Source: a virus
Lineage: Duplodnaviria > Caudoviricetes
DNA: 59,412 bases
IMG/VR virus record: IMGVR_UViG_3300032225_001111
Location: 1 to 59,412 of that record
Direction: 5' to 3' (one strand)
Positions 3,078 to 48,948 of this stretch are shown piece after piece. The notes below the pieces were generated by a model, which worked only from the letters and a program-made list of their open reading frames with translations, was not told the origin of the DNA and made no database searches. The position numbers were made by a program, and so were the translations under genes. The first letter of the stretch is position 1, and every line of letters begins with the position of its first letter.

Positions 3078-3560
3078 ATGGGAGCAACAACATCAGGCGG
3101 TATTCGTTACCCTGTATCAACTGACACAGTCAACATTCCTAACGACTTATTCAATTTGGCAAGCGACGTTCAGACATACATCAACGCAAATGCTTTGACA
3201 ACATCAGGAACTTACACTCTAACAAATAAGACAATGGGAACAACAGGTCTTGGTTTCTTCGGTGCGTCGGGACAAACAACTTTCAAAACAACATTGAACG
3301 CCTCTACTCCTGCGGCGAACGTAACGATCAACTTGCCTAACGTTGCAGGAACAGTATCTTTGATCAATAACGTTGAAACCCTGTCAAATAAATCTTTTGA
3401 TACTCAATTGACTATCAACGGCTCAGGATCAGGTTCAACGGTCATTCAAGCCAACCCGTCAGCCGCAGGAACGATCATTTTGCCTACCACGGGTGGAACG
3501 CTAGCAACAACTGACAACATTGGTAACACAGAAATGCCATTGATCATGGCGGCTTATTAG
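3078..3560 (+). CDS. Tail fibre-like protein
   Basis: AAGGAG RBS; TLTNKT/TLSNKS fibre-type repeats; Thr/Gly-rich. Confidence 0.65.
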   Translation: MGATTSGGIRYPVSTDTVNIPNDLFNLASDVQTYINANALTTSGTYTLTNKTMGTTGLGFFGASGQTTFKTTLNASTPAANVTINLPNVAGTVSLINNVETLSNKSFDTQLTINGSGSGSTVIQANPSAAGTIILPTTGGTLATTDNIGNTEMPLIMAAY

Positions 3561-5229: not shown

Positions 5230-5994
5230 ATGTATGTTAAAGACATGAACCTGTTAAATTTTAACAAAGCAAAACCAAAAAAAATTTTATTTAACCCCTT
5301 TAATGAGTGGGTTAGGGCATCAGAAACAAAACCAGTACCAAGTTTTTCAATAATGCCTTCATGGTATAAACAGTTGCGTCGTTTTGTTAATAACAGCGAT
5401 TTTCCCATTAAGGCACACGGCAAACCTGATGTAAAAATGTGTTCTCCTTTTCGCGAGGCGATCACTTACGGCTATCTTTTGGTAACTCCATGTGAATTAG
5501 AAGTAACATGGATGGCAGATGGAACTCCTGAAATTAGTTGGAATCCTCAATTCCCTTATGACCCAATTCATTTACGCGGAGATGTTAGAAATCCTGAAAA
5601 TCAAGGACTAGGAATGTCTATACCTGCGGGATGTAGCCCATTTATGTTTGCACTAAGTCCAATGTGGGCGCCTGAAACACCAAAAGGCTATTCTGTTTTA
5701 ATAACTCATCCTTTGAATCGACATGAGTTGCCTTTTATTTTAACAAGTGGAATTATGGATTCTGATAAATGGACTGATGCAGGAAACATGCCTTTTTTCA
5801 TAAAAAGTGATTTTGTTGGTGTAATTCCTAAAGGAACGCCTATTGCTCAAATCATTCCACTTAAACGAGATGACTGGGAAAGTGAATACATGATAGAAAA
5901 TTCAACGCGTAATTCTCATCGAGTGGCTTTACGCGATAGTTTTTTTTATGGTTATTATCATCGTTTTATTCGAGTTAAAAAATCTTTCAAATGA
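5230..5994 (+). CDS. Hypothetical protein, island family A (DUF6065-like)
   Basis: PxWYK, KxCxPFxxAITxGY, TPKGYS, GIxDxD and PxGTPIA motifs; paralog of 6707..7420. Confidence 0.7.
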   Translation: MYVKDMNLLNFNKAKPKKILFNPFNEWVRASETKPVPSFSIMPSWYKQLRRFVNNSDFPIKAHGKPDVKMCSPFREAITYGYLLVTPCELEVTWMADGTPEISWNPQFPYDPIHLRGDVRNPENQGLGMSIPAGCSPFMFALSPMWAPETPKGYSVLITHPLNRHELPFILTSGIMDSDKWTDAGNMPFFIKSDFVGVIPKGTPIAQIIPLKRDDWESEYMIENSTRNSHRVALRDSFFYGYYHRFIRVKKSFK

Positions 5995-6707
5995 AAACAG
6001 TTTATTGGTCGCCATTTTTTCCTATGGACGAATACCCATCAGTTCAATTGATGTATGAACAACCCGATCCTTTGCTTCAAGACCTTTTGCCACGTCGTAA
6101 CAAAAATGCCAATGGTGATAATTGGTTTCAATGTCATGCTTTTCAAGCAACTATTCGAAACACGTTTATTTTAAGAAATCATTTTTCTGCAACTTTTGCT
6201 ATTGACGATCAAATTGACATCATTCCAATAGACTTAAACGCCAAAAGAAACAGCAATTTTCTAGCAAGAAAACAACCATCAGTAATCAATGCTCAAACAT
6301 TTGCAACTAGAGGTTTATGGCTCTTTTGGTCGGAAGAACCATTGATAATAACGACCACTCCTGCTCATTATCATAAACCCGTATTTGATGGTTACTACAT
6401 AGGTGGGTCGTTTGACATTGGCAAATGGTTTAGACCAATAGAGGGGGCTATTCAATTAAATGAAGGCGTTAATACTGTTTCACTTAATCGCGGTGATCCA
6501 CTTGCTTATGTCAAGTTCGAAACTAAGGAGCCAATAACTCTAAAACGTTTTTACATGACAAAAGAATTAGAAGAACTAAATTGGGGTTGTATAAATTACA
6601 AACGCTATGAACCTAAAAAATCATTGAATTTTCTTTATGACAAATTCACACAGCGCGGATTAGACAAAATTATTACTCGTGAAATAAAAAAGAATTTGGT
6701 GGGCTAA
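5991..6707 (+). CDS. Hypothetical protein, island family B
   Basis: VYWS, QCxAFQ and GGxxDIGKWxRPI motifs; paralog of 7417..8139. Confidence 0.7.
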   Translation: MKTVYWSPFFPMDEYPSVQLMYEQPDPLLQDLLPRRNKNANGDNWFQCHAFQATIRNTFILRNHFSATFAIDDQIDIIPIDLNAKRNSNFLARKQPSVINAQTFATRGLWLFWSEEPLIITTTPAHYHKPVFDGYYIGGSFDIGKWFRPIEGAIQLNEGVNTVSLNRGDPLAYVKFETKEPITLKRFYMTKELEELNWGCINYKRYEPKKSLNFLYDKFTQRGLDKIITREIKKNLVG

Positions 6708-7420
6708 TGGACATAACTTTCATTCTTGATAAATCTTTGCCGTTTAGTAATTTAATTCCTTTAGAGTTTTATCCTATACCAGCATCAAAAGAAATTCCAG
6801 AATGGTATAAAAAAATGTCGTCTAGTTTAGACATTTCAGATCCCAAAAGGGCGAATGAGACTTCAACCATGAAGCGGTGCATGCCTATTTTTGATGCAAT
6901 TACTACGGGTTATTTGATCAAAACTTTTACAGACATAGTTATAGAAAAACAAGAAAACGGCAGTTACAAATGGTCATGGGCTTTGCCTATGAACGAAACG
7001 AGTTCTCCAATAGAAACTCATCCGGGTTTTCAAATGATGAACTATAAGGACATACCAAACATTTTAGGTTCAATGAAGTTTACAAATCCTTTTGGAATCA
7101 TAACCCCTAAAGGTTACTCTTGTTTATTTATGAATCCCCCGCATAGACCCGACTGGGGTGGTTCAATTTTAGAAGGAATTGTTGATACTGATTACTACCA
7201 TTCTCCTGTTAATTTTCCATTTTTCTATAATTTAGAAAAAGGTGTTGTGCCTGCTGGAACACCAATTGCTCTTGTTTTGCCATTTAAGAGAGAATCATGG
7301 AAAATGAGAATAGGTAGCGATAAAGATTTCAATAAATTGATGAATAGCAGAGGAACTGTTAGAAGTGTTTTTATTCAAGGCTATAAAAATTTTCTAAGGC
7401 AGAAAAAAGAATTCAAATGA
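6707..7420 (+). CDS. Hypothetical protein, island family A (DUF6065-like)
   Basis: Same motifs as 5230..5994. Confidence 0.7.
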   Translation: MDITFILDKSLPFSNLIPLEFYPIPASKEIPEWYKKMSSSLDISDPKRANETSTMKRCMPIFDAITTGYLIKTFTDIVIEKQENGSYKWSWALPMNETSSPIETHPGFQMMNYKDIPNILGSMKFTNPFGIITPKGYSCLFMNPPHRPDWGGSILEGIVDTDYYHSPVNFPFFYNLEKGVVPAGTPIALVLPFKRESWKMRIGSDKDFNKLMNSRGTVRSVFIQGYKNFLRQKKEFK

Positions 7421-8139
7421 ATAATGATCCGTTAATTGTTTATTGGTCATCGACTTTAAGTTTAGTGGAAGTTTATCGATCATTGCATAAACAAAAATCC
7501 AAAACACGTATTCAACCCGTAAATTTGCTTCAATGCCCAGCATTTCAAAACGGCATGGATAATTTGTTCATGTTAACTCTAACAAAAGATGAAAGTTATG
7601 AGTGGAATGTTGAGTGGGATTTAACTAAAGGTTTGAACAAAACTTTGGACATCCCGCGAACTCGTTATCAACATTTCGAAAATTCAGACTATTTTAATTT
7701 GCCCTACGCATTGAATTTATTTTGTGAAGAATCTTTACAAATGCAAGCAACCGCTCCATGGTTTCATAAGTCAACTTTTCAAGAAAAAGGCACTACAGTC
7801 GGGGGCATTTATGACATTGGAAAATGGTATCGCCCAATCATTATGGATGTTTGCGTATGGGGCAATAGCGGAAAGATTGATTTTAAGGCAAATGAGCCTC
7901 TTTATTACATAAAATTTTTGACAGATAGACCTGTCAAAATGGTGCGGTATAACAATACCCCCGAACTTGAACTTTTTGCTACGACCTTAATCAATGACCC
8001 TAATCGATCAATTGGCAAGCGGTTTGGAACATTGGAAAAACGCTATGAAATTTTTGCGCAATCGCCCATAAGGCAAGCGATAATTGAAGAAATCAAAGCC
8101 AACCTAGTGTCTGAGGACATCGCCAGCCCTAGCGTGTAG
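7417..8139 (+). CDS. Hypothetical protein, island family B
   Basis: Same motifs as 5991..6707. Confidence 0.7.
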   Translation: MNNDPLIVYWSSTLSLVEVYRSLHKQKSKTRIQPVNLLQCPAFQNGMDNLFMLTLTKDESYEWNVEWDLTKGLNKTLDIPRTRYQHFENSDYFNLPYALNLFCEESLQMQATAPWFHKSTFQEKGTTVGGIYDIGKWYRPIIMDVCVWGNSGKIDFKANEPLYYIKFLTDRPVKMVRYNNTPELELFATTLINDPNRSIGKRFGTLEKRYEIFAQSPIRQAIIEEIKANLVSEDIASPSV

Positions 8140-9903: not shown

Positions 9904-10144
9904 CCTAAAGGCGGGGTTGGAAAATCTTTTAGATAACCCAAATGTTTTCGATCCAACAGAATGTTTTGTTGGTCAAATAATCTCGCATCTAAGTCTTGAT
10001 GAAGCGCAATTGTTGAAAACCGCGCTCGCTGATAAACGAATCCGTCACGTCGATCTTGTTCGATTATGTGAAGCAGAAGGTTACAAAATGAGTGAAGCAA
10101 CAATGCGCCGACATCGAGCGCGTGGTTGTAGGTGCGATCAATGA
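9770..10144 (+). CDS. Hypothetical HTH-like/Cys-containing protein; true start probably after 9900
   Basis: C-terminal SEATMRRHRARGCRC; the 5' part overlaps the Com-like gene, so the start is uncertain. Confidence 0.55.
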   Translation: MLTDGGLIVTKRLSAGAVDESLRNTLQSRIASNVQDAKQSTNTFSLKAGLENLLDNPNVFDPTECFVGQIISHLSLDEAQLLKTALADKRIRHVDLVRLCEAEGYKMSEATMRRHRARGCRCDQ

Positions 10145-11340
10145 GTTTTGCTGATCGTGTAAATCGATTAGTTGAAGATACAGAGGAAGAAGCACTCAAA
10201 CCGCCCACGCGTGAAAAACAAGCCCAATGGCGCGAAGGTGTTGAATGGAATGGCACAGAAGGCTTTATCACAACAGGAGTATTAGAAGGCGAACTAAGCC
10301 CTAGTTGGGATGGTGTATTACGCATCTGGGGTCTTGATCCCGAGCAATTTATGGTTGTTGAACCAGTTTTATTCAACGTATGGGGCGATCCATTAGGCAC
10401 AGTTCAACGTCAATGGAAAGGCAAAGTTGTTCGCAAACAAGCGCAAGATGATTTTTATGATCTTGACGTGTTGAAAGAGGAAATCAAAAAACACAAACCT
10501 AAGAAAGTTTTGCCCCTTATGGGCGAAGGTGTTTTCAACGTTGTTCTTGCAGATTGGCAATTGGGTAAGCCCGAAGGCGGCGGTAGTAAAGCAACTGCGC
10601 AACGTGTTTTAGATTCGATCGATGCTGTTCTTGGTCGCGTTGAAGAATTGAAAAGACTCAAACGACCATTAGGAACACTTCAAATTATTTGGACAGGCGA
10701 TAGCGTTGAAGGGTGCATCGGTCACTATGAGATGCAGACATTTGGTACAGACCTTGATCGGCGAGCGCAAGTCAACGCAGTTCGAACATTATTGCTACAA
10801 GCAATCAAAACATGGTCGCCTTACTTTGAGAAAGTGCGTATAGTTGCAGTTGGGGGAAATCATGGCGAGAATCGATCAGCAAAAGGAAAAGCCTATACTA
10901 CCCTTGCGGACAATGATGATCTTGCAGTTATTGACCAAGTCAGAGATGTCCTTGAGTTCAACCCCGAAACCTATGGTCATGTTCAAACGATTATTGCGCC
11001 TGATCATCTTACAGTTACGATCGAAACGGCGGGGTGGATTTTAGGTTTGACTCATGGTCATACAGCGCGTGAAACAGGATCGGCTGAGGCAAAGATAAAG
11101 TCATGGCTATCTCGAATGGCACTTGGTCGTCAACCTATTGGCGAGTGTGACATTTTAGTGACAGGTCACTATCACCATTTACGTCAAGCGGATTGGGGTT
11201 CAGTTCAATGGCTACAAGCACCAGCACTAGATGGGGGATCGGAATGGTTCAGATTGATCAGGGGAGAACAGAGCGCGGCGGGAGTTCTGACGTTCGCGAC
11301 ATACCCCGAAGCGAAAGTGAAGGATCTGCAAGTCCTATGA
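10141..11340 (+). CDS. Calcineurin-like metallophosphoesterase
   Basis: DWQLG, GDSVEG, GGNHGE, HGH and GHYHH motifs. Confidence 0.85.
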   Translation: MSFADRVNRLVEDTEEEALKPPTREKQAQWREGVEWNGTEGFITTGVLEGELSPSWDGVLRIWGLDPEQFMVVEPVLFNVWGDPLGTVQRQWKGKVVRKQAQDDFYDLDVLKEEIKKHKPKKVLPLMGEGVFNVVLADWQLGKPEGGGSKATAQRVLDSIDAVLGRVEELKRLKRPLGTLQIIWTGDSVEGCIGHYEMQTFGTDLDRRAQVNAVRTLLLQAIKTWSPYFEKVRIVAVGGNHGENRSAKGKAYTTLADNDDLAVIDQVRDVLEFNPETYGHVQTIIAPDHLTVTIETAGWILGLTHGHTARETGSAEAKIKSWLSRMALGRQPIGECDILVTGHYHHLRQADWGSVQWLQAPALDGGSEWFRLIRGEQSAAGVLTFATYPEAKVKDLQVL

Positions 11341-23780: not shown

Positions 23781-25931
23781 ATGAAGCGTTCTTCCCCCAA
23801 AGAGCGCAAAAAGATAGCCGCAGAGGTTATGCGATTATCTCCTTTGTTGCTCATTTTAGGTTCGTTGTTTGCCCCAGCACAAGACGCTAATGCGTCATGC
23901 GTAACAACAGCCCAAACTGTTGCGACCGCATCAACTGCGGCGAATGTATTGAATACACAAGTGCCTATAACAGGGTCAGAAACCGCAACAGCAACGCCCG
24001 TAATCGTTCAAGACACCTGCGGTGGTGACGATGTTTCATACCAAGTCGCACTACCAACAGCAATCAATTTTCAAGGAACTGAATACAACGCTGTCTATGC
24101 AACAACTAACTCTACAATCGTCTTTGGTCGTCAAGATAATGACTTTGCAAACTTTCCGCGCACACCATCAATTTCAGTCAATGCCTACGACTGGGTAGTT
24201 CTTGATCCCGCAAACCCTAATCCTTCAAATGCTTATCCTGCGGGTTGGCGAGCGCCTGATGAACATTTGATCATCAGTTCAAGTCAAGCAGGGTTTCAAG
24301 TTGATTTAGCAGTTCGACCTTATGGCGTAAATGCCGCAGGTGTGCCTCTTTCAACAATTGTGGTAACTGCCGCGATCAATACAGACAATACTTTGACGAT
24401 CACTTACTTATCTGATGTTCAACAAGGCTTGAATACTCGAACAGGCGTTCGCTTGCCTGATGGTCGAGTTGTGACTTTAGCAGAGGCAGGAATGACAAGA
24501 GTTTATGTTGCGCCTGTTGTGACAGCAGAGGCAGTTCAACCTGCCCCTATTCCTTCTCCCACTCCGACAGAATCCGCTCCAACTCCAAGTCAATCGCCGA
24601 GTCCAAATCCGACCCCAACTGCATCCCCCGCGCCGTCACCCTCATCGACTCCTGCGCCTTCTCCAAGTCCGACGCCATCTTCCACACAGTCGCCAGTTGT
24701 AGAACCTTCACCAACCCCCACACCAACATCGTTGCCAACAACAACGCCGACACCCATACCATCTCCATTGCCTACCCCTTCCCCATCGCCTTCGAGCGTT
24801 CCTGATCCAACGCCATCTCCAAGTCAGACTCCCGTAGTCGAGCCTTCGCCAACGCCGACTCCGCAACCATTACCCTCGACCGCTCCAACATCAACGCCGA
24901 CTCCTGCGCCCGTTCCCGATCCCGCACCTGTTCCAAATCAACCTTCAAGTCCACAACCGCCAGTTGTAAGACCCGAACCGACTCCGCAACCCGTTCCAGC
25001 CGAGCCATCGGTGACTCCCGATCCGATTCCCGTACCACAGCCCGAACCTGCCCCTGTTCCACAGCCTGAGCCTGTTCCTGCGCCCGAACCCGCACCCGTC
25101 GACGCAACACCTATACCAACCCCTGAAACAGCCCCAGAACCAGCACCAGAACCCCCAGCAGAGCCAATGCCAGCCCCAGCCGACCCAATGCCCGTCGACC
25201 CCGCGCCGTTGCCTCAGCCTGAACCGCAAGACCCAGCACCAGCAGAAGAACCACCTGCAATACCACAAGAACCTTTGCCAATAGACCCACCTCCTGCCCA
25301 AAATGATAATCCACCAGCACCAGTTCCACAAGACCCGCCACCAGCACCGAACGACACTCCACCGCCAGTTGAGTTGATCGAAAATCTAAGTGCTAATCAG
25401 TTCCATGAGGAACTAGCGGCTGACAATGTTTCAATCGAACAATACAAAGCGATCGGACTTGCACCTAACAGTCCTGATCAGTTGCCTGAATTTACGCCAA
25501 AAGAAGCACCAGCAGAAAAACTTGTTGCACACATTCAAGAAGACAAAGCGGGTGTTGAAAATGGTGGTATTGAATTCTTTGGAACAAAATCGCAACCGCA
25601 AGTGATCGGTGAAGATGGTCAATTGACTCCACCACCACCAGCACCAGGTTCAGGCGATCCAATCCCACCTGATGCGATCACTCTTGCCGAAACATTTATT
25701 GGTCAAGTTGGTGGCGTTACATTCAACGCACCCGACGTAGCCGTTCCAGTATTACCGATCGAAGTAAACATTGACATTCCGGGTGTTGGTCAAGCCGCAC
25801 AAGCGGTTGCTGATGCCTATGTTGCGCTCGCAAACATCGGAAACGACATGTCGCCTGTTACGAGAAAGAAGGCGAAGAAGATACTCGTTGCTACACTTGT
25901 CGGTGGCATCGTTCTAAGGAGAAAACCATGA
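23781..25931 (+). CDS. Exported, Pro-rich, C-terminally anchored surface protein
   Basis: Signal peptide ending ...AQDANA; about 280 aa of PSPT/PEP repeats; C-terminal ILVATLVGGIVL followed by RRKP. Confidence 0.8.
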   Translation: MKRSSPKERKKIAAEVMRLSPLLLILGSLFAPAQDANASCVTTAQTVATASTAANVLNTQVPITGSETATATPVIVQDTCGGDDVSYQVALPTAINFQGTEYNAVYATTNSTIVFGRQDNDFANFPRTPSISVNAYDWVVLDPANPNPSNAYPAGWRAPDEHLIISSSQAGFQVDLAVRPYGVNAAGVPLSTIVVTAAINTDNTLTITYLSDVQQGLNTRTGVRLPDGRVVTLAEAGMTRVYVAPVVTAEAVQPAPIPSPTPTESAPTPSQSPSPNPTPTASPAPSPSSTPAPSPSPTPSSTQSPVVEPSPTPTPTSLPTTTPTPIPSPLPTPSPSPSSVPDPTPSPSQTPVVEPSPTPTPQPLPSTAPTSTPTPAPVPDPAPVPNQPSSPQPPVVRPEPTPQPVPAEPSVTPDPIPVPQPEPAPVPQPEPVPAPEPAPVDATPIPTPETAPEPAPEPPAEPMPAPADPMPVDPAPLPQPEPQDPAPAEEPPAIPQEPLPIDPPPAQNDNPPAPVPQDPPPAPNDTPPPVELIENLSANQFHEELAADNVSIEQYKAIGLAPNSPDQLPEFTPKEAPAEKLVAHIQEDKAGVENGGIEFFGTKSQPQVIGEDGQLTPPPPAPGSGDPIPPDAITLAETFIGQVGGVTFNAPDVAVPVLPIEVNIDIPGVGQAAQAVADAYVALANIGNDMSPVTRKKAKKILVATLVGGIVLRRKP

Positions 25932-27155: not shown

Positions 27156-27659
27156 ATGAATCTACGCGAAACCGCTTTGCGACTAGCCGCAATTACAGTT
27201 GTGGCAGATGCCGCGAAAGATGCGAAAGACAGGCTCCGTGATCAATTTGCAGAACAGTTGAACGCTGTTGGTGCAGATGCCGCGAAAGCCTCGCTCGACG
27301 ATACGGAAGTTGCGAAAGTTTCTCTTGTTAGTCCAAAAGCAAGTGCAACAGTAGTTCATGAAACAGCGTTCATTGAGTTCGTTGAAAAAATCATGCCTAC
27401 GGAAATTGTCAAATCAGTTCGCGATAGTTACAAGAAACATTTTCTTGAAAACTGCATCAGCGTTGATGGACAAACAATCTACACGCCAACAGGTGAGGTT
27501 TTGAACTTCATCAGTTTCAAGAATCGTGAATCATACGTTTCTTGCCGTTTCGCAACAGGTGGTCGAGAGATCATCGCTGACGCGTTCCGATCAGGCACAT
27601 TAAATCCAGCACAGTTACTCGATGATGCGCCAGCAGAAATTGAGGTAGCAAATGTCTGA
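27156..27659 (+). CDS. Hypothetical protein of the recombination module
   Basis: GAAAGGAG RBS supports ATG 27156 over 27105. Confidence 0.75.
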   Translation: MNLRETALRLAAITVVADAAKDAKDRLRDQFAEQLNAVGADAAKASLDDTEVAKVSLVSPKASATVVHETAFIEFVEKIMPTEIVKSVRDSYKKHFLENCISVDGQTIYTPTGEVLNFISFKNRESYVSCRFATGGREIIADAFRSGTLNPAQLLDDAPAEIEVANV

Positions 27660-28290
27660 TCAAAAACCAACCATTCATGAGTCATTGGCAAAAGTCATGG
27701 CAAGCGTTTCGTCAGTTGCCAAGAAAGACAAAAACACCTCGCAAGGTTTCAATTTTCGCGGGATCGATGCTGTTCTCAATGCAGTAGCCCCTGCCTTGCG
27801 CGAACATGGTGTGATCGTTATGCCTAAAGTCACATGGCATGACTACAAAACAGTAGAAGTCGGACAAAAGCGCACTCAAATGGCTCACGTCATAGTTTCT
27901 GTTCAATACACATTCACAGGACAAGCAGGAGATTCGATCGAATGTCAAGTGTTAGGTGAAGCAATGGACTCGGGCGATAAGGCAGTTGCTAAAGCAATGT
28001 CGGTTGCGTTTCGTATTGCATTACTTCAAGCACTCGCATTACCGACGGACGAACCTGATCCTGACTCATACAGTTATGAGCGTTCTGAAGCAAAACCTGA
28101 AGCAACAATCGAACAAGTTGAAGAATGGAAAATGCGTATTGCAGACGCGGTTGATGGAAAAGTCCTCGAATTTATCAGACAAGAACTGACTAACTTCGGA
28201 TTCACAGATGAACTTCGAAATGATCTTGCATCTGTCTACACGACACGCTTACGCGACCTACAAACCCCAAAGGTCACACAAACACAGTAA
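27652..28290 (+). CDS. ERF-family ssDNA annealing protein
   Basis: FNFRGID.V...GEAMDSGDKA..KAMS.A.R.AL...PTDEPDPD. Confidence 0.88.
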   Translation: MSDQKPTIHESLAKVMASVSSVAKKDKNTSQGFNFRGIDAVLNAVAPALREHGVIVMPKVTWHDYKTVEVGQKRTQMAHVIVSVQYTFTGQAGDSIECQVLGEAMDSGDKAVAKAMSVAFRIALLQALALPTDEPDPDSYSYERSEAKPEATIEQVEEWKMRIADAVDGKVLEFIRQELTNFGFTDELRNDLASVYTTRLRDLQTPKVTQTQ

Positions 28291-28306
28291 GAGATGTTGT
28301 AACGTT

Positions 28307-28347
28307 CGCGCCCCCTCGGAAATAGTTTCTAGGGGGCGCGTTCTTTT
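28307..28347 (+). terminator. Intrinsic terminator-like hairpin
   Basis: CGCGCCCCCT/AGGGGGCGCG stem followed by TTCTTTT. Confidence 0.7.
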
Positions 28348-28369
28348 ATGCCCTTAGAAAGGCACGAAA

Positions 28370-28649
28370 CTTCTAGCACGACTCATCCTCGTGTTACCCC
28401 GTCAGATGGGCGAGTTTTGCTTTGCAATGATGATGTAGAGCGTAGCGGTAACACGATAAGCCGCGAACATAATTGAGGTGTCTAATACGAGTTGCCTAGA
28501 CATGATCACAAGTCAATTATGTAAATAGCGCAACTGTTGTATTTGTAGTGAATACGACCTATTGACATGACCGCACCGACGGGTGACGAGAAGTTAGAGA
28601 TAGATCAGGACAAGGCTATCTCTAATCACGCCCTCTGGGTTCGTAGAAG
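28370..28649 (+). ncRNA. Unidentified large structured non-coding element (candidate ncRNA or origin)
   Basis: No ORF of 60 aa or more; three perfect 10-bp stems, a 5'/3' closing stem, three loop-loop complementarities; G-U pairs favour the + strand. Confidence 0.6.
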
Positions 28650-28681
28650 CCACAAGCCTAGATAGATGATAAAGTTATCAA

Positions 28682-29092
28682 GTGCTACAAAAACCAACCC
28701 GCAAATCGCCTGCAAAACGTTCTACTGGTCCTACTAAAATGGTTCGTGAGATAGTTCTTGATCGGGCTAAACACAGTTGCGAACGTTGCGGCAATCTTCT
28801 TGGCATGAACATGTTTTACTCAATACATCATCGAATTCCTAGAGGCATGGGCGGCTCTGATCGCGCTGAACTCAATTTGCCATCAAACCTTATGGCACTA
28901 TGTGGATCAGGCACTACGGGGTGTCATGGCTGGATTGAGTCAAATCGATCTTCGTCTTATGAAGACGGCTGGTTGTGCTATCGAAATGATGATCCCGCAA
29001 CAGTCATGGTCAAAATAGCAAATCCTCAACAGACTGGTGATAGGTTTCAGTATGTCTTTCTCACAGATGACGGAACATACAAACCCGCCTAA
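28682..29092 (+). CDS. HNH endonuclease
   Basis: CERC...IHHRIPRGMGG...NLMALCGSGTTGCH; leaderless TGnTAAAGT promoter. Confidence 0.85.
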   Translation: MLQKPTRKSPAKRSTGPTKMVREIVLDRAKHSCERCGNLLGMNMFYSIHHRIPRGMGGSDRAELNLPSNLMALCGSGTTGCHGWIESNRSSSYEDGWLCYRNDDPATVMVKIANPQQTGDRFQYVFLTDDGTYKPA

Positions 29093-29525: not shown

Positions 29526-29810
29526 ATGACTATAAGAGAAGTTGTAATTTTGAAATCAGGGCAAGATGGTCTTGATCGTGTTGCATCAATAACCAAAGAA
29601 ATGCGTGAACACCAAGAAGCAATTGCACGTCTGAGCAAAGATAGAAAAGACGTTGTTGTTGCGCTTCGAAGTCAGTATGGATCAACAGAGTCAGAGGAAC
29701 GAATTACGTTCAAAAAAATTGCAGAGGCTATGGGAACAACTGATCAAAGCGTCTACAAAATTCTATTTCCCCCTACAACGAAAAAGAAAAAAGATTCGAA
29801 CGCTGAATGA
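29526..29810 (+). CDS. HTH DNA-binding protein
   Basis: ITFKKIAEAMGTTDQSVYKIL. Confidence 0.75.
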   Translation: MTIREVVILKSGQDGLDRVASITKEMREHQEAIARLSKDRKDVVVALRSQYGSTESEERITFKKIAEAMGTTDQSVYKILFPPTTKKKKDSNAE

Positions 29811-30982
29811 AAATGACTTCAAACCTTCAAGGCGAGAATGTTGATGTTGCATCGCTAGAAGCGTTCCCGAACAACCCCCGTATAGGCGATCTTGGGACAA
29901 TAAAAGAAAGTCTGAGGCGTTTAGGTCAGTATCGTCCGATCGTTGTTCACAAAGGCACACGTCGAGTTTTAGCGGGGCATCATGTGTGGCAAGCGGTAAA
30001 AGATTTAGGTTGGGAAACCATTGCAGTTACATGGGTTGATGGCGATGAACAATTTTGCCGAAAAGTAGTGCTTGCGGATAATCGAACAGCCGATCTTGGC
30101 AGTTATCAAAACGACATCCTTGCAGACCTACTGCGCTCGCTTCCCGACTTGATCGCAACAGGTTATGACGCAATTCCACGCATGTTAGATAAAGAACTTT
30201 CATTCACGAAGCCCGCACCAAAAGAAGTCAAACCACGAAAGAAAGTTATTTGCGGCGGGTTCACATACAAAGTTGATCACCTTGCTTGGGAAATTTGGCA
30301 TGACAAAATCTTTGAAGAGTGCGGTGGACAAAAAGCAAAGATTCCTCGTCAGATCGGAAGTCGATTAGGCATTGAACTCACAACAAAAGCAAAGACACGC
30401 AAACTAGCCTTTTCTCCCGACCCAAAACTAGCGATTTTAGAAACTCAATCATTGCCTATTGATTCCGTTCACCCTTATTTCCTGAACGCTCGCGAAGGCG
30501 ACATTGGTGCAATTTGTGAAAGCCTTTCAACGTTAGGTCAATTTAGACCCATTATTGTCAACCGAAAAGATCGAGAAATACTGGTTGGTAACCATACATG
30601 GGCGGCGGCAAAAGCATTAGGGTGGAAATCGATCGCGGTCAGTTGGGTTGATGTTGACGCGGAAACTGCAACTCGAATTGTATTAGTCGATAATCGCACA
30701 ACCGATCTTGCTACATACGATGAGGCATTACTCAGACAAACAATGATCGATACTCGCGACCTTCAAGGAACAGGTTGGGATTCTGAGGACATGAACGATC
30801 TTTTCTCAGGATTAGAAACAAGAGCGAAAGCGACAAAACGCATCAAATTGAAAGTGGGACAGTATCTCGTACCAGTTGAATCCGAGAAATTACTTGAATG
30901 GATTGATCAATTGCCCGAAGGCAAAGAGATCGAACACATAGCAAACTTACTTTTGCTACCGATCTCAGAATTGCCAAACTAG
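29807..30982 (+). CDS. Protein with two tandem ParB/Srx N-terminal domains
   Basis: Two copies of N(P/A)R.GD...I.ESL..LGQ(Y/F)RPI.V...L.G.H.W.A.K.LGW...DNRT.DL. Confidence 0.85.
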   Translation: MKMTSNLQGENVDVASLEAFPNNPRIGDLGTIKESLRRLGQYRPIVVHKGTRRVLAGHHVWQAVKDLGWETIAVTWVDGDEQFCRKVVLADNRTADLGSYQNDILADLLRSLPDLIATGYDAIPRMLDKELSFTKPAPKEVKPRKKVICGGFTYKVDHLAWEIWHDKIFEECGGQKAKIPRQIGSRLGIELTTKAKTRKLAFSPDPKLAILETQSLPIDSVHPYFLNAREGDIGAICESLSTLGQFRPIIVNRKDREILVGNHTWAAAKALGWKSIAVSWVDVDAETATRIVLVDNRTTDLATYDEALLRQTMIDTRDLQGTGWDSEDMNDLFSGLETRAKATKRIKLKVGQYLVPVESEKLLEWIDQLPEGKEIEHIANLLLLPISELPN

Positions 30983-30996
30983 GGTAGGGTGAGATC

Positions 30997-31824
30997 ATGC
31001 GCATGACTTTTGCTTTGGGAACTTCACCTACACACTCTGCGATCATCAACGAAGTCAAGCCAAAAAACATTCTTGTTGCTTTCCCATACGCAAAAGCATT
31101 AGACACGTTGACTTACAAACCTGAGTATGTCATGACGGATTCAGGTGCGTTCACAGCATGGAACGTTGGAAAGCAAGTGGACATTGGTGCTTATGCAGAT
31201 TGGGCATTATCGCAAGCAAAGAAGTTTCCACGCGTGTTGTCAGTAAATCTTGACGTAATTCCGGGCGAGAAAGGTCGCACTTCAACTGAAAAAGAACGAA
31301 TTGAAGGCATGAAGCGATCGATCAAGAACGCGGATTATCTACGCGATCGCGGAATTGATGTTATGGAAGTTTTCCACCAAGACGAACCAAAAGAGTTTTT
31401 GAACGAGTTAGTTGATCGCCTTCCCAAAAATGGTGTTTTAGGCATTTCGCCTCGTAACGATAAGCATTTGAAAGCCAAAGTCGAATGGCAAGAAGTCGTT
31501 TTGAGCGCATTAGTTGAAAAATGCGGAAAAGATAAGTTGCCTCGAACGCATGGATTAGCGGTAACAAGTATTGAAATGTTGCGCAATTTTCCCTACTATT
31601 CTGGGGATTCGTCAACGTGGGTAAATCCTTTTCGTTATGGAGGCTACGTTGATGAACGCGGAAGAATTGTGGGAATTGACACGATCATGAGCAAGCGACC
31701 TAGCGGTAGCGAGTCAAATGATGCACTTCATTTCTTTGCAAGAGAAAGCATCTACAACCTAATACGAGTGGGCGATTCCATGACGAACTTATGGAGTAAG
31801 CGCGGAATCAATTGGAAGGACTGA
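30997..31824 (+). CDS. dpdA: DpdA-like DNA 7-deazaguanine transglycosylase (TGT fold)
   Basis: DSGAF, NLDVIPG, VFHQ, HGL and DSSTW motifs; adjacent to que genes. Confidence 0.75.
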   Translation: MRMTFALGTSPTHSAIINEVKPKNILVAFPYAKALDTLTYKPEYVMTDSGAFTAWNVGKQVDIGAYADWALSQAKKFPRVLSVNLDVIPGEKGRTSTEKERIEGMKRSIKNADYLRDRGIDVMEVFHQDEPKEFLNELVDRLPKNGVLGISPRNDKHLKAKVEWQEVVLSALVEKCGKDKLPRTHGLAVTSIEMLRNFPYYSGDSSTWVNPFRYGGYVDERGRIVGIDTIMSKRPSGSESNDALHFFARESIYNLIRVGDSMTNLWSKRGINWKD

Positions 31825-31825
31825 C

Positions 31826-32506
31826 ATGGCAAAAGCAACTCAATTAACTATCAAGCATTTACCGATCAATGAAATTGATCCGAATCCTTGGAATCCAAAT
31901 AAACAGAATGAACGTCAGTATCAAGCAGAGATCGAATCTATCTGCCAAAACGGATTTATTGCGCCTATTCTTGTTCGAGAGATCAATGATCGCCATGAAA
32001 TTATTGATGGTGAGCATCGCTGGAAAGCATTGCGTCAGATTGGCGAAGATGAAATTGAAGCAAAAGGCAATGTTCCTTCACTTGTTGAAGCAAAGACAAT
32101 TCCTTGCATTGTTTTGAATGTCAGCGAAACTGAGGCAAAGAAATTGACGATCATCATGAACGAAACTCGCGGTCGCGCTGACTTAGCCGACTTGGGCGGG
32201 TTGTTGCAAGAACTTTCAATTGACTTAGGCGATGATTTACTCACAGGATTGCCATACACAGAAGGACAACTCAAAGAACTTATGGGAATGTCTGACTTTG
32301 ACTGGGATCAATTTGAAAAAGGAGCGTCTGACAAAGAGTTTGATAATGCAGACGGCGATGGTTTCCGCGTGACAGCACTTCTCAATGAAGAAGATGAGGC
32401 ACGATGGAAAGGTTATCTAGCGCAAATGCGTGGCGACTTGCCCGATGAGCCTAGAGAGCAAGCGGGTGCGTTGATCGCGCACTTGATGAATAAAGCAGGA
32501 ATCTAA
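31826..32506 (+). CDS. ParB/Srx-domain protein
   Basis: PNPWNPN...GFIAPILVR...IIDGEHRW. Confidence 0.85.
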   Translation: MAKATQLTIKHLPINEIDPNPWNPNKQNERQYQAEIESICQNGFIAPILVREINDRHEIIDGEHRWKALRQIGEDEIEAKGNVPSLVEAKTIPCIVLNVSETEAKKLTIIMNETRGRADLADLGGLLQELSIDLGDDLLTGLPYTEGQLKELMGMSDFDWDQFEKGASDKEFDNADGDGFRVTALLNEEDEARWKGYLAQMRGDLPDEPREQAGALIAHLMNKAGI

Positions 32507-32552
32507 ACGAGGTATCTAGGAAAACCCTCATTACAAAAAACAGGAGAAGAAA

Positions 32553-32969
32553 ATGACAGAAACAAGCCAGTTGACCATTCTTGGTCAAAAAGTAGACGGG
32601 TCGCTAACAAAAGATCAGTTGGAGTTCTTTCCAGCCCCGAAACATGTTGATCACGTCAAGTTTGAAACACACGAATTTACAGCGTTGTGTCCAGTAACAA
32701 ACCAACCCGATCTCTACACCGTGATCATCGAATACTCGCCTAATGAGCGTTGCGTTGAGTCAAAATCACTAAAGTTGTATTTGATGCAATGGCGCAATGA
32801 AGGAATCTTTGGTGAAGCAATTACAGGACTGATCGCATCAGACCTATTTGAAGTGCTAGATGCACATTGGGTTGAAGTAAAAACAACACAGCAAGCGCGA
32901 GGCGGTTTGGTAATGACATCAATTGCCTCACGCTCAAAGGGATTAGACAAGGAGTATTCAATTGGCTAA
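32553..32969 (+). CDS. queF: preQ0 reductase QueF (unimodular)
   Basis: EFTALCPVTNQPD, QueF motif ESKSLKLY, RGG. Confidence 0.92.
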   Translation: MTETSQLTILGQKVDGSLTKDQLEFFPAPKHVDHVKFETHEFTALCPVTNQPDLYTVIIEYSPNERCVESKSLKLYLMQWRNEGIFGEAITGLIASDLFEVLDAHWVEVKTTQQARGGLVMTSIASRSKGLDKEYSIG

Positions 32970-33675
32970 AGCAGCAGTTGTCGCATCAGGCGGCATGGAT
33001 AGCGCAACACTCGCATGGCATTATCATCGACAAGGCATGGACGTTCATCTAATTGGGTTCAATTATGGTCAGCGTCATGCTAAGGAATTAGATTTCTTGC
33101 AGATTATTGCGCAGAAGATCAACGCAGATTTTACGATCGTAGACATGGGCTTTATGTCCGATTTGTTACATGGTTCGGCATTGACAGCAGAAGGCGGCGA
33201 AGTGCCTGATGGTCACTATCGAGAAGAAACAATGCGTCAAACTGTTGTGCCTAACCGAAATGCAATCATGCTTTCAATTGCAACAGGCATTGCTGTGGCA
33301 GAAGGTTGTGAACTCGTTGCAACAGGCATCCATTCAGGCGATCACTACATCTACCCTGACTGCCGACCACAATTCTTTGAACCTCTACAAGCGGCGTTCA
33401 AGGCTGGAACAGAAGGACACGCACACCCTGACTTCCGACTTGAAGCACCATTTATCCAAAAGACAAAAGCAGACATTGCGGCTTACGGACATGAATTACA
33501 CGTTGACTATGCAAACACATGGTCATGTTACAAGGGCGGCGAAGTTCATTGCGGTCGTTGTGGAACATGCGTTGAGCGAATTGAAGCATTTATCGATGCA
33601 AAGGTTGACGATCCAACAGTCTATGCAGATGGAATTGAGTTCGCACTCGAAGAAATTGAAAAGCGACGTGTTTAG
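32962..33675 (+). CDS. queC: 7-cyano-7-deazaguanine synthase
   Basis: SGGMDS, YGQRH, VPNRN, YPDCR, TWSCY..G..HCGRCGTC. Confidence 0.95.
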   Translation: MAKAAVVASGGMDSATLAWHYHRQGMDVHLIGFNYGQRHAKELDFLQIIAQKINADFTIVDMGFMSDLLHGSALTAEGGEVPDGHYREETMRQTVVPNRNAIMLSIATGIAVAEGCELVATGIHSGDHYIYPDCRPQFFEPLQAAFKAGTEGHAHPDFRLEAPFIQKTKADIAAYGHELHVDYANTWSCYKGGEVHCGRCGTCVERIEAFIDAKVDDPTVYADGIEFALEEIEKRRV

Positions 33676-34111
33676 ATCAACCAAGCGGTATGGTCATGAA
33701 GTCGGGTTTAGTTGTGCGTTCCGTCAATGGAAAGCCGATTCACATTGCAACTTGCTTCATGGCTATGCGCTCGCTTTCACATTCACTTTTGAGGCGACCG
33801 AACTTGATCATCGCAATTGGGTAGTTGATTTTGGCGGTTTGAAGGCATTGAAAAACATGCTGGAAAAGACGTATGATCACAAAGTAGTTGTAGCAGAAGA
33901 TGATCCTTACTTATTTGAATTCCAGAACCTTGATCGATTAGGTGTTCTAGAGTTAGTCACGCTACCAAAAACAGGTTGCGAACAGTTTGCCGCCCACGCC
34001 TACGAACTTGCAATGGCGGTTTTGAAACGTGACGGATTCTACCCGCGTTGTCGAGTTGTGAAAGTAGAGGTAGCAGAACATGGCGCAAATTCTGCAATTT
34101 ACATTCCATGA
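33668..34111 (+). CDS. queD: 6-carboxytetrahydropterin synthase
   Basis: GTG start 33668; HCNLLHGY, WVVDFG.LK, DH and E..A motifs. Confidence 0.9.
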   Translation: MFRSTKRYGHEVGFSCAFRQWKADSHCNLLHGYALAFTFTFEATELDHRNWVVDFGGLKALKNMLEKTYDHKVVVAEDDPYLFEFQNLDRLGVLELVTLPKTGCEQFAAHAYELAMAVLKRDGFYPRCRVVKVEVAEHGANSAIYIP

Positions 34112-34827
34112 CCGATGTTGAAACGAGTAAAGAACGCTGGGTCAACCTAAATGAAATTTTCGGTCCTACAATTCAAGGCGAGGGCATACATACAGGGCAA
34201 CGGGTCGGATTCGTTCGACTAGCGGGTTGCAACCTTGCATGCTCATGGTGTGACACGCCTTATTCATGGGACTGGGATAGGTTCGATCGTAAAGAGGAAT
34301 CCCATAAGACATTAGTTGCCGACCTTGCTAATTTGATCAAAGCAATGGAAGTCGATCGCATCATCGTGACAGGTGGTGAACCCATGTTGCAACAAACAGC
34401 ACTTTGGGACTTGAAGGCATCGATCGGGAACATAGACATCGACGTTGAAACAAACGGCACGATTCTTCCCAACATCAAGACGATCAATGCGGTAGACATG
34501 TTCTGCGTAAGCCCAAAACTTGCTCATGGTGGCGATTTACTAGAGGTGCGTCGAACAAAAGCATTGGAGTCATTTGCCTACCTTGCAGGTGAGGACAGGG
34601 CAATTTTCAAGTTTGTTTGCCAATGGGTAAGCGATTTTGATGAAATCGAAGAAATCATTACTCAATTCAAAATCCCACGCAAGGCAGTATGGATTATGCC
34701 CGAAGGAACGTCACAACTTGCACAGATGGAAGTCATGAACAGGCTTGCCGATGAAGCGATCACTCGCGGTTGGAACATCTCGCCTAGACTCCATGTGCTT
34801 ATTTGGAATACAGAAAGGGCTCGCTAA
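34108..34827 (+). CDS. queE: 7-carboxy-7-deazaguanine synthase (radical SAM)
   Basis: TIQGEG, FVRLAGCNLACSWCDT, TGGEP, ETNG, VSPK. Confidence 0.95.
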   Translation: MTDVETSKERWVNLNEIFGPTIQGEGIHTGQRVGFVRLAGCNLACSWCDTPYSWDWDRFDRKEESHKTLVADLANLIKAMEVDRIIVTGGEPMLQQTALWDLKASIGNIDIDVETNGTILPNIKTINAVDMFCVSPKLAHGGDLLEVRRTKALESFAYLAGEDRAIFKFVCQWVSDFDEIEEIITQFKIPRKAVWIMPEGTSQLAQMEVMNRLADEAITRGWNISPRLHVLIWNTERAR

Positions 34828-35385
34828 ATGGCGGTTGACATAAAAAGGGTTGAAGAACTGACGCGTGAACTATTGATCGCAATAGGTGAAGACCCTGATC
34901 GAGAAGGAATTATTGATACTCCTAAGCGGTATGCAAAGTGGTGGAAAGAGTTTATGGATTATGACGCAGGGAAGGTCGAAACTGCGTTCGAAATCAAAGA
35001 CAGCGATCAAATGGTTGCGGTTACTGGCATGAAGGTGTGGTCGCTTTGTGAACATCATCTACTGCCGTTTAGTGCTACTGTCAGCATTGGATACATTCCA
35101 AACGATCGAGTGTTAGGACTTTCAAAATTTGCCCGTATTGCTCATGAACAGGCGCACCAACTTCAATTGCAAGAACGCCTTGTAACAGACATTGCTAATC
35201 GTCTAAGTATGATCATGAATACCGAAGACATTGCTGTTGTTGCAGACGGCTCACACTCTTGCATGACAATGAGAGGCGTTCGAACAGAGGGAAGTATGAG
35301 AACATCAGTTATGCGAGGCGTGTTCCGCGATGAACATGAAACGCGTAGTGAGTTCCTCAATCTTGTTTCTAATCAACGAAACTAA
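34828..35385 (+). CDS. folE: GTP cyclohydrolase I
   Basis: TPKR, SLCEHHLLPF, GLSKFAR, QLQERL, HSCMTMRG. Confidence 0.95.
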   Translation: MAVDIKRVEELTRELLIAIGEDPDREGIIDTPKRYAKWWKEFMDYDAGKVETAFEIKDSDQMVAVTGMKVWSLCEHHLLPFSATVSIGYIPNDRVLGLSKFARIAHEQAHQLQLQERLVTDIANRLSMIMNTEDIAVVADGSHSCMTMRGVRTEGSMRTSVMRGVFRDEHETRSEFLNLVSNQRN

Positions 35386-46790: not shown

Positions 46791-47354
46791 ATGACAACCA
46801 TCATAGCGGTGCAAGGTAAAGACGGCGTTCGCTTTGGTGCGGATGCACAAGTAACTGCTGGCAATGGTCGTGTTGCTCGCCATACACAGATGGTAAAGAT
46901 CAGCGAGCGCGGTGTTTATGTGATCGCAGGATCAGGCGAGTGCGCCCCTTGCGACATAGCCCAACACATTTGGGAACCACCTTTGCCGAAGGCAACCGAT
47001 TACAACGACCTCTATCACTTTATGATCGCAAAAGTCATTCCTTCATTGAAGGCGTGTTTCAAAGAGCAAGAATACAAATGGAACGAACCCGATGATGATG
47101 AAACAAAATTTGCTTTCTTGATCGCGGTCGGCGGTCAAGTGTTTGAAGTCGCAGATGACATGAGTGTGATGCTCGATGGAAATGGTTTTTATGGTGTTGG
47201 GTCGGGATCAAGTTATGCGATCGGTGCATTATGCGCTGGATCAACAATTGAAGAAGCACTGAAAATCGCCGCCCGAAATGATGCCTATACCAGCGCGCCG
47301 TTCTTATACTATGAGCAAAAGACACGTCTAAAGACCACGAAGGCGGTAAAATAA
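46791..47354 (+). CDS. Proteasome-beta/HslV-like Ntn hydrolase
   Basis: MTTIIA N-terminal Thr, GAD.Q, K, GSGSSYA.GAL. Confidence 0.85.
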   Translation: MTTIIAVQGKDGVRFGADAQVTAGNGRVARHTQMVKISERGVYVIAGSGECAPCDIAQHIWEPPLPKATDYNDLYHFMIAKVIPSLKACFKEQEYKWNEPDDDETKFAFLIAVGGQVFEVADDMSVMLDGNGFYGVGSGSSYAIGALCAGSTIEEALKIAARNDAYTSAPFLYYEQKTRLKTTKAVK

Positions 47355-48017: not shown

Positions 48018-48156
48018 TTTACTAACAGGCATAACTGTTGGCATGTTGTTCTCCTTCTTCAAATTTCCCATTCCTGCACCACCTACGTTTGCTGGCATTG
48101 TTGGCATTGTTGGTATTTGGTTAGGCATGATCATTATGGTTTGGTTTCGTAATTGA
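47998..48156 (+). CDS. XapX/DUF1427-like small membrane protein (not in ORF track)
   Basis: SLLTGITVGMLFSFFKFPIPAPPTFAGIVGIVGIWLG. Confidence 0.75.
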   Translation: MMMVTSSLLTGITVGMLFSFFKFPIPAPPTFAGIVGIVGIWLGMIIMVWFRN

Positions 48157-48461
48157 ATAAGCCCCCGCGTTACCCGCGAGTAACAGGATTCGAACCATGC
48201 GCCGTTACTGATCCCGAATTATGGTTTCCCGAACGTTCTAATCAATACATGAAAATCGCCGCAATTGCTAAACAACTTTGTCAGACATGTCCACTAATGT
48301 ATGAGTGTGCTGATTACGCCATTGGTACTGATGTCGAAGGCATCTGGGGCGGGACAGACGAAAAACAAAGGAAGGCAATTCAAAAAGCGCGAGGAATTGA
48401 ACCATTCAAATTCGTCAAACTTATGGTTGCTTTATTGGAACAAATGAACGCGAAAGCGTAA
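48153..48461 (+). CDS. whiB: WhiB-family transcription factor
   Basis: C...DPELWFP...AK.LC..CP....C...GIWGG. Confidence 0.93.
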   Translation: MNKPPRYPRVTGFEPCAVTDPELWFPERSNQYMKIAAIAKQLCQTCPLMYECADYAIGTDVEGIWGGTDEKQRKAIQKARGIEPFKFVKLMVALLEQMNAKA

Positions 48462-48480: not shown

Positions 48481-48948
48481 ATGTCAACACCAGTAACACT
48501 TGTAGGAAATCTAACGGCTGATCCTGAATTGAAGTTCACACAGCAAGGCAAGGCACTTGCAAAGTTCACGATCGTAACATCAGAGCGATACAAAAACCCG
48601 GACGGCAATTGGGAAGATAAAAACACAACGTTTTGGAATGTAGTTTGTTGGAATGGATTAGCAGAACACGTTGCGGATTCATTATCAAAAGGCGATCAAG
48701 CAATTGTCTTTGGTCGTGCGTTTCAAAAGTCATGGGAAGATGAAAAAACAGGCGAGAAGCGTCAACGAACAGAGGTTGAAGCAAAGAGTGTTGGCGCAGG
48801 ACTTGATCGTGCATCAGCAAAAATAACTCGATTTACCAAACCAGCATCAGGCGGTGCGGCGGTAAGCAATGATCCTTGGTCAACGCCCGCAAATAACGAT
48901 CCTTGGGCAGTATCGTCAAATCAATCGGACGATTTACCACCATTCTAA
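48481..48948 (+). CDS. ssb: Single-stranded DNA-binding protein
   Basis: VGNLTADPELKFT..., DPW repeats and DDLPPF tail (actinobacterial type). Confidence 0.95.
   Translation: MSTPVTLVGNLTADPELKFTQQGKALAKFTIVTSERYKNPDGNWEDKNTTFWNVVCWNGLAEHVADSLSKGDQAIVFGRAFQKSWEDEKTGEKRQRTEVEAKSVGAGLDRASAKITRFTKPASGGAAVSNDPWSTPANNDPWAVSSNQSDDLPPF

Follow-up and report, generated by a model that had tools for sequence, protein, structure and literature searches.

GOLLD and ROOL are large, intricate RNAs of phages and prophages, whose folds are supported by covariation, which occur independently of neighbouring genes and whose function is unknown. Both are ~600–800 nt long, assemble into homo-oligomeric cages and are typically located beside tRNA genes; GOLLD was discovered in lake metagenomes. 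HEARO, or the omega RNA of IscB, is a structured and pseudoknotted RNA of ~200–300 nt located directly upstream of a gene with an HNH domain. To our knowledge, new large RNA families with tertiary structure are rare, and RNase P, group I/II introns, OLE, GOLLD, ROOL, raiA and HEARO have each led to new biochemistry or tools. Here, we describe an element of ~300 nt from the complete IMG/VR virus record IMGVR_UViG_3300032225_001111 (59,412 bp with direct terminal repeats, in its full length called the window), which is located in the 391-nt gap between the genes for an ERF-family annealing protein and an HNH endonuclease. Comparison with its relatives indicates that this element is very probably a real, conserved and structured + strand RNA, and with moderate confidence we read window positions 28349–28651 (+) as the gene for a self-contained, stand-alone and trans-acting non-coding RNA (ncRNA).

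GOLLD and ROOL are the closest described RNAs in kind, as they share with the window RNA the phage-borne location, the ornate and covariation-supported fold and the independence from particular neighbours. They differ in being much larger; furthermore, their Rfam models gave no match here and no common sequence or architecture was seen. The original prediction, made from the letters of the window, had proposed a novel large ncRNA at this site, and this core claim is borne out by an element which is conserved, covarying, oriented on the + strand, non-coding and without a match in Rfam 15.

The first relatives were obtained by locus searches based on the ERF and HNH genes, followed by blastn and nhmmer. 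Six contigs carry the same element 3′ of ERF with identities of 98% (one truncated by the contig end), 83% and 74–76% (clade A, 74–98%); the aligned block extends from about 28349 to 28651, and conservation ends near 28651. Motif scans of IMG/VR and of a metagenome collection, and then a covariance model (R1) of the 140-nt core only, built from clades A–D, led to the further clades B (L033, L034/L042, L041, L043 and L251), C and D (L039/L040 and L075), E (L274), F (L276 and L330) and G (L025/L026). In total, the family comprises 23 viral or metagenome contigs with 17 distinct sequences in seven clades, and the GC content of the core is between 36 and 54%. The clades outside the seed, E, F and G, are retrieved by R1 at 48, 40.7 and 30.8 bits, while 882,834 bases from unrelated viral loci gave nothing further below E = 0.1. 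A scan with the motif GCGTTTGAGGC..AAACGA gave 107 matches, nearly all in coding sequence; 80 of these loci were run through R1, which matched two of them, L330 and L303 (the L025 contig).

Among 50,697 cultured phage records, blastn with the window, clade E, clade F and clade G elements gave no match, and a query with a 73-nt core at E<=10 against the same collection resulted only in three chance matches in Bacillus phage exonuclease genes. R1 detected no copy in 155 actinobacterial genomes (four metagenome-assembled genomes and 151 genomes of one order), a sample and not a proof of absence. Likewise, none of the listed matches from a motif scan of genome contigs (at least 120) passed the nhmmer profile, so that these were chance matches; they may have displaced genuine prophage copies. 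The carriers are uncultured, mostly freshwater, actinophage-like tailed phages with one copy of the element per genome. At the nucleotide level the element (74–86% identity) and its flanking genes (69–90%) are equally conserved. Between the window and clade B, whose shared proteins are only ~27–35% identical, a 20-nt block with a single variable position is kept.

Two alignments were used for the analysis of the fold: A3, a full-length MAFFT alignment of 14 sequences, and A5, a core alignment of 17 sequences. In A3, 83.6% of the cells are paired versus 33–44% with the 3′ partners slid, and 32 pairs changed on both sides versus 7–14 in the slid controls; the covariation score of 0.357 (at most 0.10 when slid) was reached by none of 500 shuffles. 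A5, which was fitted to the nested helices so that the counts for these are biased upward, has 92.9% of its cells paired (33–44% slid) and double, compensatory changes in 31 of 37 pairs; covariation in homologues, proposed as a check with the original prediction, is therefore present. The counts for hairpin Hs and pseudoknot PK-B are free of this bias, because neither helix was in the fitting model. In addition, G-U cells exceed A-C cells by 46:9 in A5 and by 74:32 in A3, so that selection acts on the + strand as a single strand, in line with the earlier remark that several G-U pairs work on this strand only.

The folding energy of the + strand in the window is −86.6 kcal/mol (z = −3.26), which was equalled by one of 200 shuffles, compared with z = −1.29 and 19 of 200 for the − strand. 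Folding beyond shuffles, the second check that had been named, is thus seen as well, although the calculated energy alone is suggestive rather than decisive. Substitutions between the window and clade A2, counted by position modulo 3, are 25/24/24 in the element and 38/28/131 in ERF. The longest stop-free stretch in the element varies from 29 to 87 amino acids and is not conserved, and 1-nt insertions or deletions occur; a small protein-coding open reading frame (ORF) was rejected on the grounds of missing codon periodicity and the lack of a conserved frame. The element shows what is generally expected of a structured ncRNA, namely compensatory changes beyond controls, strand-specific G-U pairs and conservation in relatives.

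The predicted RNA gene spans 28349–28651 (+). Its fold, as deduced from the alignments, has seven to eight hairpins and one firm tertiary pairing, which connects the apical loop of hairpin He with the strand just 3′ of helix Hx. The parts are as follows.

28349..28364, + strand: Ha, small hairpin at the 5′ side (UGCC/GGCA); present as a hairpin in clades A and B, sequence not conserved, weakly supported
28370..28375, + strand: 5′ strand of P1 (CUUCUA), partner 28644–28649; weak, with 54% of cells paired and a single U-A to C-G change (clade A)
28376..28394, + strand: Hb, hairpin GCACGA/UCGUGU with a 7-nt loop; double changes in four of six pairs, 91.5% of cells paired
28397..28411, + strand: Hs, hairpin with a CC..GG stem and the 7-nt loop GUYANAN; three of four pairs compensatory (17 sequences)
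28419..28441, + strand: Hc, hairpin; 89.5% of cells paired, double changes in four of six pairs
28445..28464, + strand: Hd, hairpin with the conserved loop end YCGAWAA; double changes in four of five pairs, 93.8% paired
28467..28522, + strand: He, long bent hairpin; double changes in nine of nine outer and seven of seven inner pairs
28490..28495, + strand: 5′ strand of PK-B (AGUUGC) in the He loop; pairs with 28530–35 in 17 of 17 sequences, four of six pairs compensatory
28524..28528, + strand: 5′ strand of Hx (AAUAG), partner 28559–28563; two closing pairs in 17 of 17 sequences, A-U to G-C
28530..28535, + strand: 3′ strand of PK-B (GCAACU), partner of 28490–95
28537..28557, + strand: Hf, variable peripheral hairpin; five of seven pairs compensatory (A3), GAAA or UUCG loop in other clades, absent in C and D
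28559..28563, + strand: 3′ strand of Hx (CUAUU), partner of 28524–28528
28582–88, + strand: conserved GGUGAYG block after a linker, candidate 3′ strand of PK-A (from the alignments)
28594..28625, + strand: Hg, hairpin UUAGAGAUAG/CUAUCUCUAA; A-U to G-U changes in clade A, equivalents read in other clades
28626..28651, + strand: 3′ tail with conserved CCCUC..GGUUC and the 3′ strand of P1 at 28644–49 (from the alignments)

Hairpin He consists of an outer 10-bp stem (28467–76/28513–22), an asymmetric internal loop, an inner 7-bp stem (28478–84/28497–503) and a 12-nt apical loop (28485–96) with an invariant ACGA. The loop strand of PK-B varies together with its partner: GGUUGC/GCAAUC is found in clade A2 and AACUUC/GAAGUU in clade G, the latter representing three compensatory pairs at once. 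Similarly, the stem of Hs reads CCGC/GCGG in clade F and CUGC/GCAG in clade G. A second tertiary pairing, PK-A, between the Hs loop (GUYA, 28401–28404) and UGAY (28584–28587) is plausible from the alignment: 95% of its cells are paired, with wobble changes only (A3), and reading by eye adds one compensatory pair in clade G (GUUU/AGAC) and one mismatch each in clade F and L043. Across the clades, the ACGA of the He loop, a GCG before PK-B and the YCGAWAA of the Hd loop are unpaired and invariant.

All stems listed in the original prediction are present in the window where they had been placed, and their fate in the relatives differs. The 10-bp stem 28467/28513 changed on both sides in ten of ten pairs among 14 sequences and in nine of nine among 17, and the inner stem GTGTCTA/TAGACAT in seven of seven among 17. 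Well supported are also the inner stem GCTTTGCA/TGTAGAGC (89.5% of cells paired in 17 sequences), AATAG..GTTGTATT/AATACGACCTATT through its two closing pairs, the hairpin 28594/28616, and the pseudoknot AGTTGC/GCAACT, which is the PK-B of our model. For the proposed closing stem 28370/28644, the middle three pairs hold in clade A with the single U-A to C-G change, whereas the stem as a whole is weak. The perfect 10-bp stem 28389/28447, on the other hand, is complete in the window only, with eight of ten pairs in two sequences, four to six in the other 11 and no compensation; it is not supported, and the covarying hairpins Hb (28376–94) and Hd (28445–64) use the same bases. Of the suggested pairing CCGTC (28399)/GACGG (28578), the GACGG is not conserved, and the conserved complementary segment is the shifted UGAYG at 28584–88. 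Only GG/CC and one A-U pair persist of AGA-T-GGGCG/CGCCCTCT, which competes with the covarying Hs (28397–28411), and the alternative pairing of 28388–403 with 28578–90 is mismatched even in the window. A further candidate pairing, GAUGGG (28405) with CCUAUU (28558), was dropped, since CCUAU already pairs with AAUAG in Hx.

A search of the whole window against Rfam 15 at gathering thresholds gave no match. With E<=10, positions 28200–28800 gave five matches, all far under threshold (the best with 22.4 bits versus 65) and none covering the core, and eight related loci (44,996 bases) gave six weak matches, none at the element; the Rfam check proposed earlier thus leaves the RNA without a known family. 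ARAGORN found no tRNA or tmRNA gene in the window. In the literature we found no description of this RNA. This includes parts of PMC10690425, a catalogue from 2023 with over 10,000 candidate structured RNAs of IMG/VR, whose supplementary files may list the element. The RNA probably belongs to a family not yet described. With a size of ~300 nt and a well-defined core it is small enough for probing and cryo-electron microscopy, and it is located in the recombination module of abundant lake phages with hosts that are hard to grow. Should the RNA bind a host factor or signalling molecule or have catalytic activity, phage-host conflict would gain an RNA-based strategy; if it were only a leader or an origin transcript, it would still provide a new, well-supported motif for the annotation of phage genomes.

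The immediate surroundings of the RNA in the window are formed by the following features.

27652..28290, + strand: gene for an ERF-family single-strand annealing protein (SSAP), upstream neighbour outside the RNA (Pfam ERF, E 3.8e-25)
28307..28347, + strand: terminator-like GC-rich hairpin and T-run directly 5′ of the RNA (inverted repeat I1); its stem covaries in relatives (alignment A1)
28682..29092, + strand: gene for an HNH endonuclease, downstream neighbour outside the RNA (PHROG 740, E 9.8e-32; Pfam HNH slightly below cut-off), starting 30 nt past the RNA end

Throughout the family the RNA lies inside the recombination module, and its neighbours and orientation vary. Clade A has the order ERF, RNA, HNH and RusA on a single strand, and in clade F (L276) an SSAP gene, a gene x, a promoter-like site, the RNA, a small ORF, HNH and terminase follow each other. 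Clade G (L025) contains an SSAP 51% identical to that of clade F and an HNH 50% identical to that of the window, followed by RusA, with the RNA on the opposite strand. In clade B, the two complete genomes G001 and G003 carry the RNA in antisense to all flanking genes, beside a gene for an SbcD-like exonuclease. In clades C and D (L039 and L075) it is located 3′ of a Cas4-like nuclease gene and 5′ of tail genes, and in clade E (L274) it is the last element on its own strand after ERF, HNH and a cytosine methylase, with convergent genes opposite.

Under the reading favoured here, the RNA would be a self-contained transcription unit that acts in trans via its fold, by binding a conserved protein or ligand or by catalysis. 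It would be neither a regulator of neighbouring genes nor an HNH guide, and would not act by base pairing with mRNA. The window copy might be transcribed by an ERF transcript running through the leaky hairpin and T-run at 28307–47 or from an unrecognised promoter. A cis-regulator of HNH or late genes is disfavoured by the free orientation within one conserved slot, the differing downstream genes and the terminal position in clade E; the same holds for a guide or scaffold for HNH.

Several observations weigh against this reading. Its weakest point is the presumed expression, and the promoter scan near the window copy gave no promoter-like site. In clade A1 the upstream hairpin with its T-run and the RNA are too close together to accommodate a promoter between them; there the RNA would therefore arise only by read-through, which also fits a cis-acting leader. 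Same-strand genes of late type follow the RNA in four of the seven clades (A, C, D and F). Among the genes compared (DpdA/QueC and HNH/RusA) none co-occurs specifically with the RNA, and the comparison names no partner protein or ligand. Finally, the 17 sequences represent seven clades and thus a modest number of independent substitution events.

One alternative is a cis-acting 5′ leader of a late or packaging operon (HNH, RusA and later terminase), which would control read-through, stability or translation in the manner of a riboswitch, attenuator or antiterminator. The start of the window HNH gene so close to the RNA, the terminator-like hairpin directly before it, the L276 order from promoter-like site to terminase and the same-strand tail genes downstream in L039 and L075 all fit such a leader. 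In L276, the promoter-like site has an extended −10 and lies directly upstream of the RNA; in L025, a TTGCAT-17-TATTTT site was read by hand and was not reported by the promoter scan. With its position in clades A and F, between the terminator of an early operon and later genes, the RNA resembles phage leaders such as HK022 put, an antitermination RNA of one quarter the size of the window RNA. For a riboswitch or another cis-acting leader constant position and orientation would be expected; four clades (A, C, D and F) have the RNA upstream on the same strand, two (B and G) have it inverted, and in clade E it is terminal. In G001 and G003 it is inverted relative to every neighbour, in L025 it is inverted in the same slot between SSAP and HNH-RusA, and in L274 nothing lies downstream on its strand. 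Moreover, the downstream genes differ among the clades, and neither a conserved terminator or antiterminator nor an alternative masking a ribosome-binding site was seen at the 3′ end. Taken together, a leader has a low though appreciable probability.

Clades A, B, D and E have a hairpin with a U-run analogous to that of the window in front of the RNA, the clade B equivalent (L034 1597–1631, − strand) originating from the terminator scan. Because it is kept in clade B although no upstream gene exists on that strand, it may be part of an RNA cassette, as an attenuator or 5′ protective stem, and not the ERF terminator alone. This accompaniment is one of the features expected of a small mobile cassette of hairpin and RNA that spreads between phages and is selected for its own propagation; the same slot holding the element in both orientations and an element whose conservation far exceeds that of the remaining genome point in the same direction. 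Against this stand the single copy per genome and the absence of adjoining terminal repeats, target duplications, and integrase or transposase genes, which make a selfish cassette very improbable. A related suggestion, to which we assign a small probability, is a new large functional RNA class that is swapped between phages as an orientation-free cassette and serves as a ribozyme or as a decoy for ligands or proteins, for example as an RNA sponge that captures a defence signal or enzyme of the host. In that case the double-pseudoknotted core would have been kept nearly base for base in phages of hosts from 36% to 54% GC.

The free orientation would also be expected of a replication origin, with a transcript that forms an R-loop or a structured primer used by host enzymes. 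Primer transcripts that start DNA synthesis are known from ColE1 RNA II and from the R-loop origins of phage T4; these resemble the window RNA as structured transcripts from a replication or recombination region which are independent of gene orientation. The constant location in the recombination/replication module is in agreement with this idea, and a non-exhaustive scan of window ORFs revealed no initiator, helicase, primase or DNA polymerase. Short tandem repeats adjoin the RNA in L025, where four 8-nt repeats GTGACAGA lie directly upstream of it after the TTGCAT-17-TATTTT site (1796–1835, − strand), and in L041, where two 25-nt repeats lie directly downstream (3337–3402). The L025 repeats could, as they follow that site, be an operator or a 5′ leader repeat, and repeats next to the RNA occur in only two of the eight loci examined. 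None of five genomes (the window, G001, G002, G003 and G005) has a turn of the GC skew at the RNA, and the extreme of the cumulative skew in the window is ~3 kb away, next to the proline-rich gene 23781–25931. Furthermore, the G-U bias indicates selection on one strand as RNA, and very divergent phages (proteins ~30% identical) have unpaired bases and tertiary pairings in common, which is unusual for origins and speaks more for a folded RNA that has a fixed partner than for a DNA site specific to one initiator. In contrast to ColE1 RNA II and the T4 origins, no origin signature was found here, and conservation is concentrated in a compact tertiary core instead of a hybrid-forming stretch. To an origin or primer we assign a low probability.

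Invariant unpaired bases are also the starting point for a new ribozyme, which would be self-cleaving, self-processing or acting on other RNA and whose active site would be formed by the double-pseudoknotted core together with the unpaired ACGA and GCG. Hairpins tied together by loop-to-junction pairings, a possible weak closure by P1 and the phage-borne nature of the family would suit this idea, as phages often carry small ribozymes. On the other side, the RNA matches no ribozyme family of Rfam and no conserved candidate cleavage site can be named, so that we consider a ribozyme improbable.

By analogy with the HEARO/omega RNAs of IscB, the window RNA could be a guide or scaffold partner of the adjacent HNH nuclease, as had been suggested in the original prediction. 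The resemblance is in the structured and pseudoknotted nature, the similar size and the position upstream of an HNH gene, which clades A, F and G have within ~0.4 kb of the RNA and clade E at ~1.4 kb. HEARO systems would have an IscB-type protein with RuvC and HNH domains of ~400–500 amino acids on the same strand, whereas the window protein of 136 amino acids consists of the HNH domain only, without RuvC or PLMP parts, and the Rfam HEARO model does not match. Neither orientation nor neighbour is fixed: in L025 the RNA and the orthologous HNH (50% identity) are on opposite strands, tail genes lie downstream in clades C and D, and in G002 the HNH homologue is ~21 kb away. No homologue of HNH (blastp E<=1e-5) or RusA was detected in the clade B genomes. 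Conversely, HNH homologues are common in cultured actinophages (520 records), yet blastn finds no copy of the element in the 50,697 cultured records. The gene contexts thus largely refute a partnership with HNH, and what is left of it appears extremely improbable.

Group I introns, with 250–400 nt, long-range pairings and an association with phages and HNH, are similar to the window RNA in all of these respects. An intron was rejected since no gene is interrupted: ERF is complete (stop at 28290, followed by the terminator hairpin) and HNH is a separate ORF with its own start. The antisense location of the element with respect to the flanking genes in clade B and the lack of an Rfam intron match speak against it as well.

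The window phage is, as far as its genes indicate, an actinophage-like siphovirus, an assignment based on Mycobacterium, Arthrobacter and Gordonia phages as the source of the nearest cultured relatives of its HNH (520 records with identities of up to 42%). The genome encodes WhiB, SSB, a CHAP endolysin, terminase and portal proteins in addition to a recombination block of ERF, HNH, RusA and ParB-like genes. Public DNA runs holding small shares of the window record are labelled as freshwater metagenomes. SSB, WhiB, an HslV-like peptidase, an SbcD/Mre11-like exonuclease and a ParB-like protein are common to all or most of the RNA-bearing genomes compared (the window, G001, G002, G003 and G005). 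In the window, four of them are found at these positions.

10132-11340: SbcD/Mre11-like exonuclease
46791-47354: HslV-like peptidase
48153-48461: WhiB
48481-48948: SSB

Positions 29807-35385 hold a block of genes for 7-deazaguanine DNA modification, composed as follows.

29807-30982: ParB-like, first part of the block
30997-31824: DpdA/TGT-like, first part
31826-32506: second ParB-like, first part
32553-32969: GTP-cyclohydrolase-like, second part of the block
32962-33675: QueC, second part
33209-34111: QueD, second part
34048-34827: QueE, second part
34828-35385: FolE, second part

Apart from the window, this block is found only in G004, the closest relative; the sister genome G005, which is 98% complete, lacks it. 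A link between the RNA and the 7-deazaguanine genes was rejected, with DpdA and QueC being present in only one of five other RNA-bearing genomes.

The gene at 23781-25931, whose C-rich codons account for the minimum of the cumulative GC skew at ~25 kb, encodes a protein of 716 amino acids that has a signal-like segment at its N-terminus, a centre of ~350 amino acids extremely rich in Pro, Thr, Ser and Glu, and a hydrophobic anchor at its C-terminus. In the head-morphogenesis region, an ORF of 756 amino acids (53078-55348) combines an XkdF-like serine protease domain (residues 339–461) with a C-terminal domain similar to Zeta-toxin/AAA_33 kinases (555–721). Finally, four consecutive ORFs of ~240 amino acids each are located at 5230-8139 (5230-5994, 5991-6707, 6707-7420 and 7417-8139), the first of which matches PHROG 7084 of unknown function. 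Since three of the four match just two ORFs of G005 by blastp, the group resembles a set of tandem paralogues.

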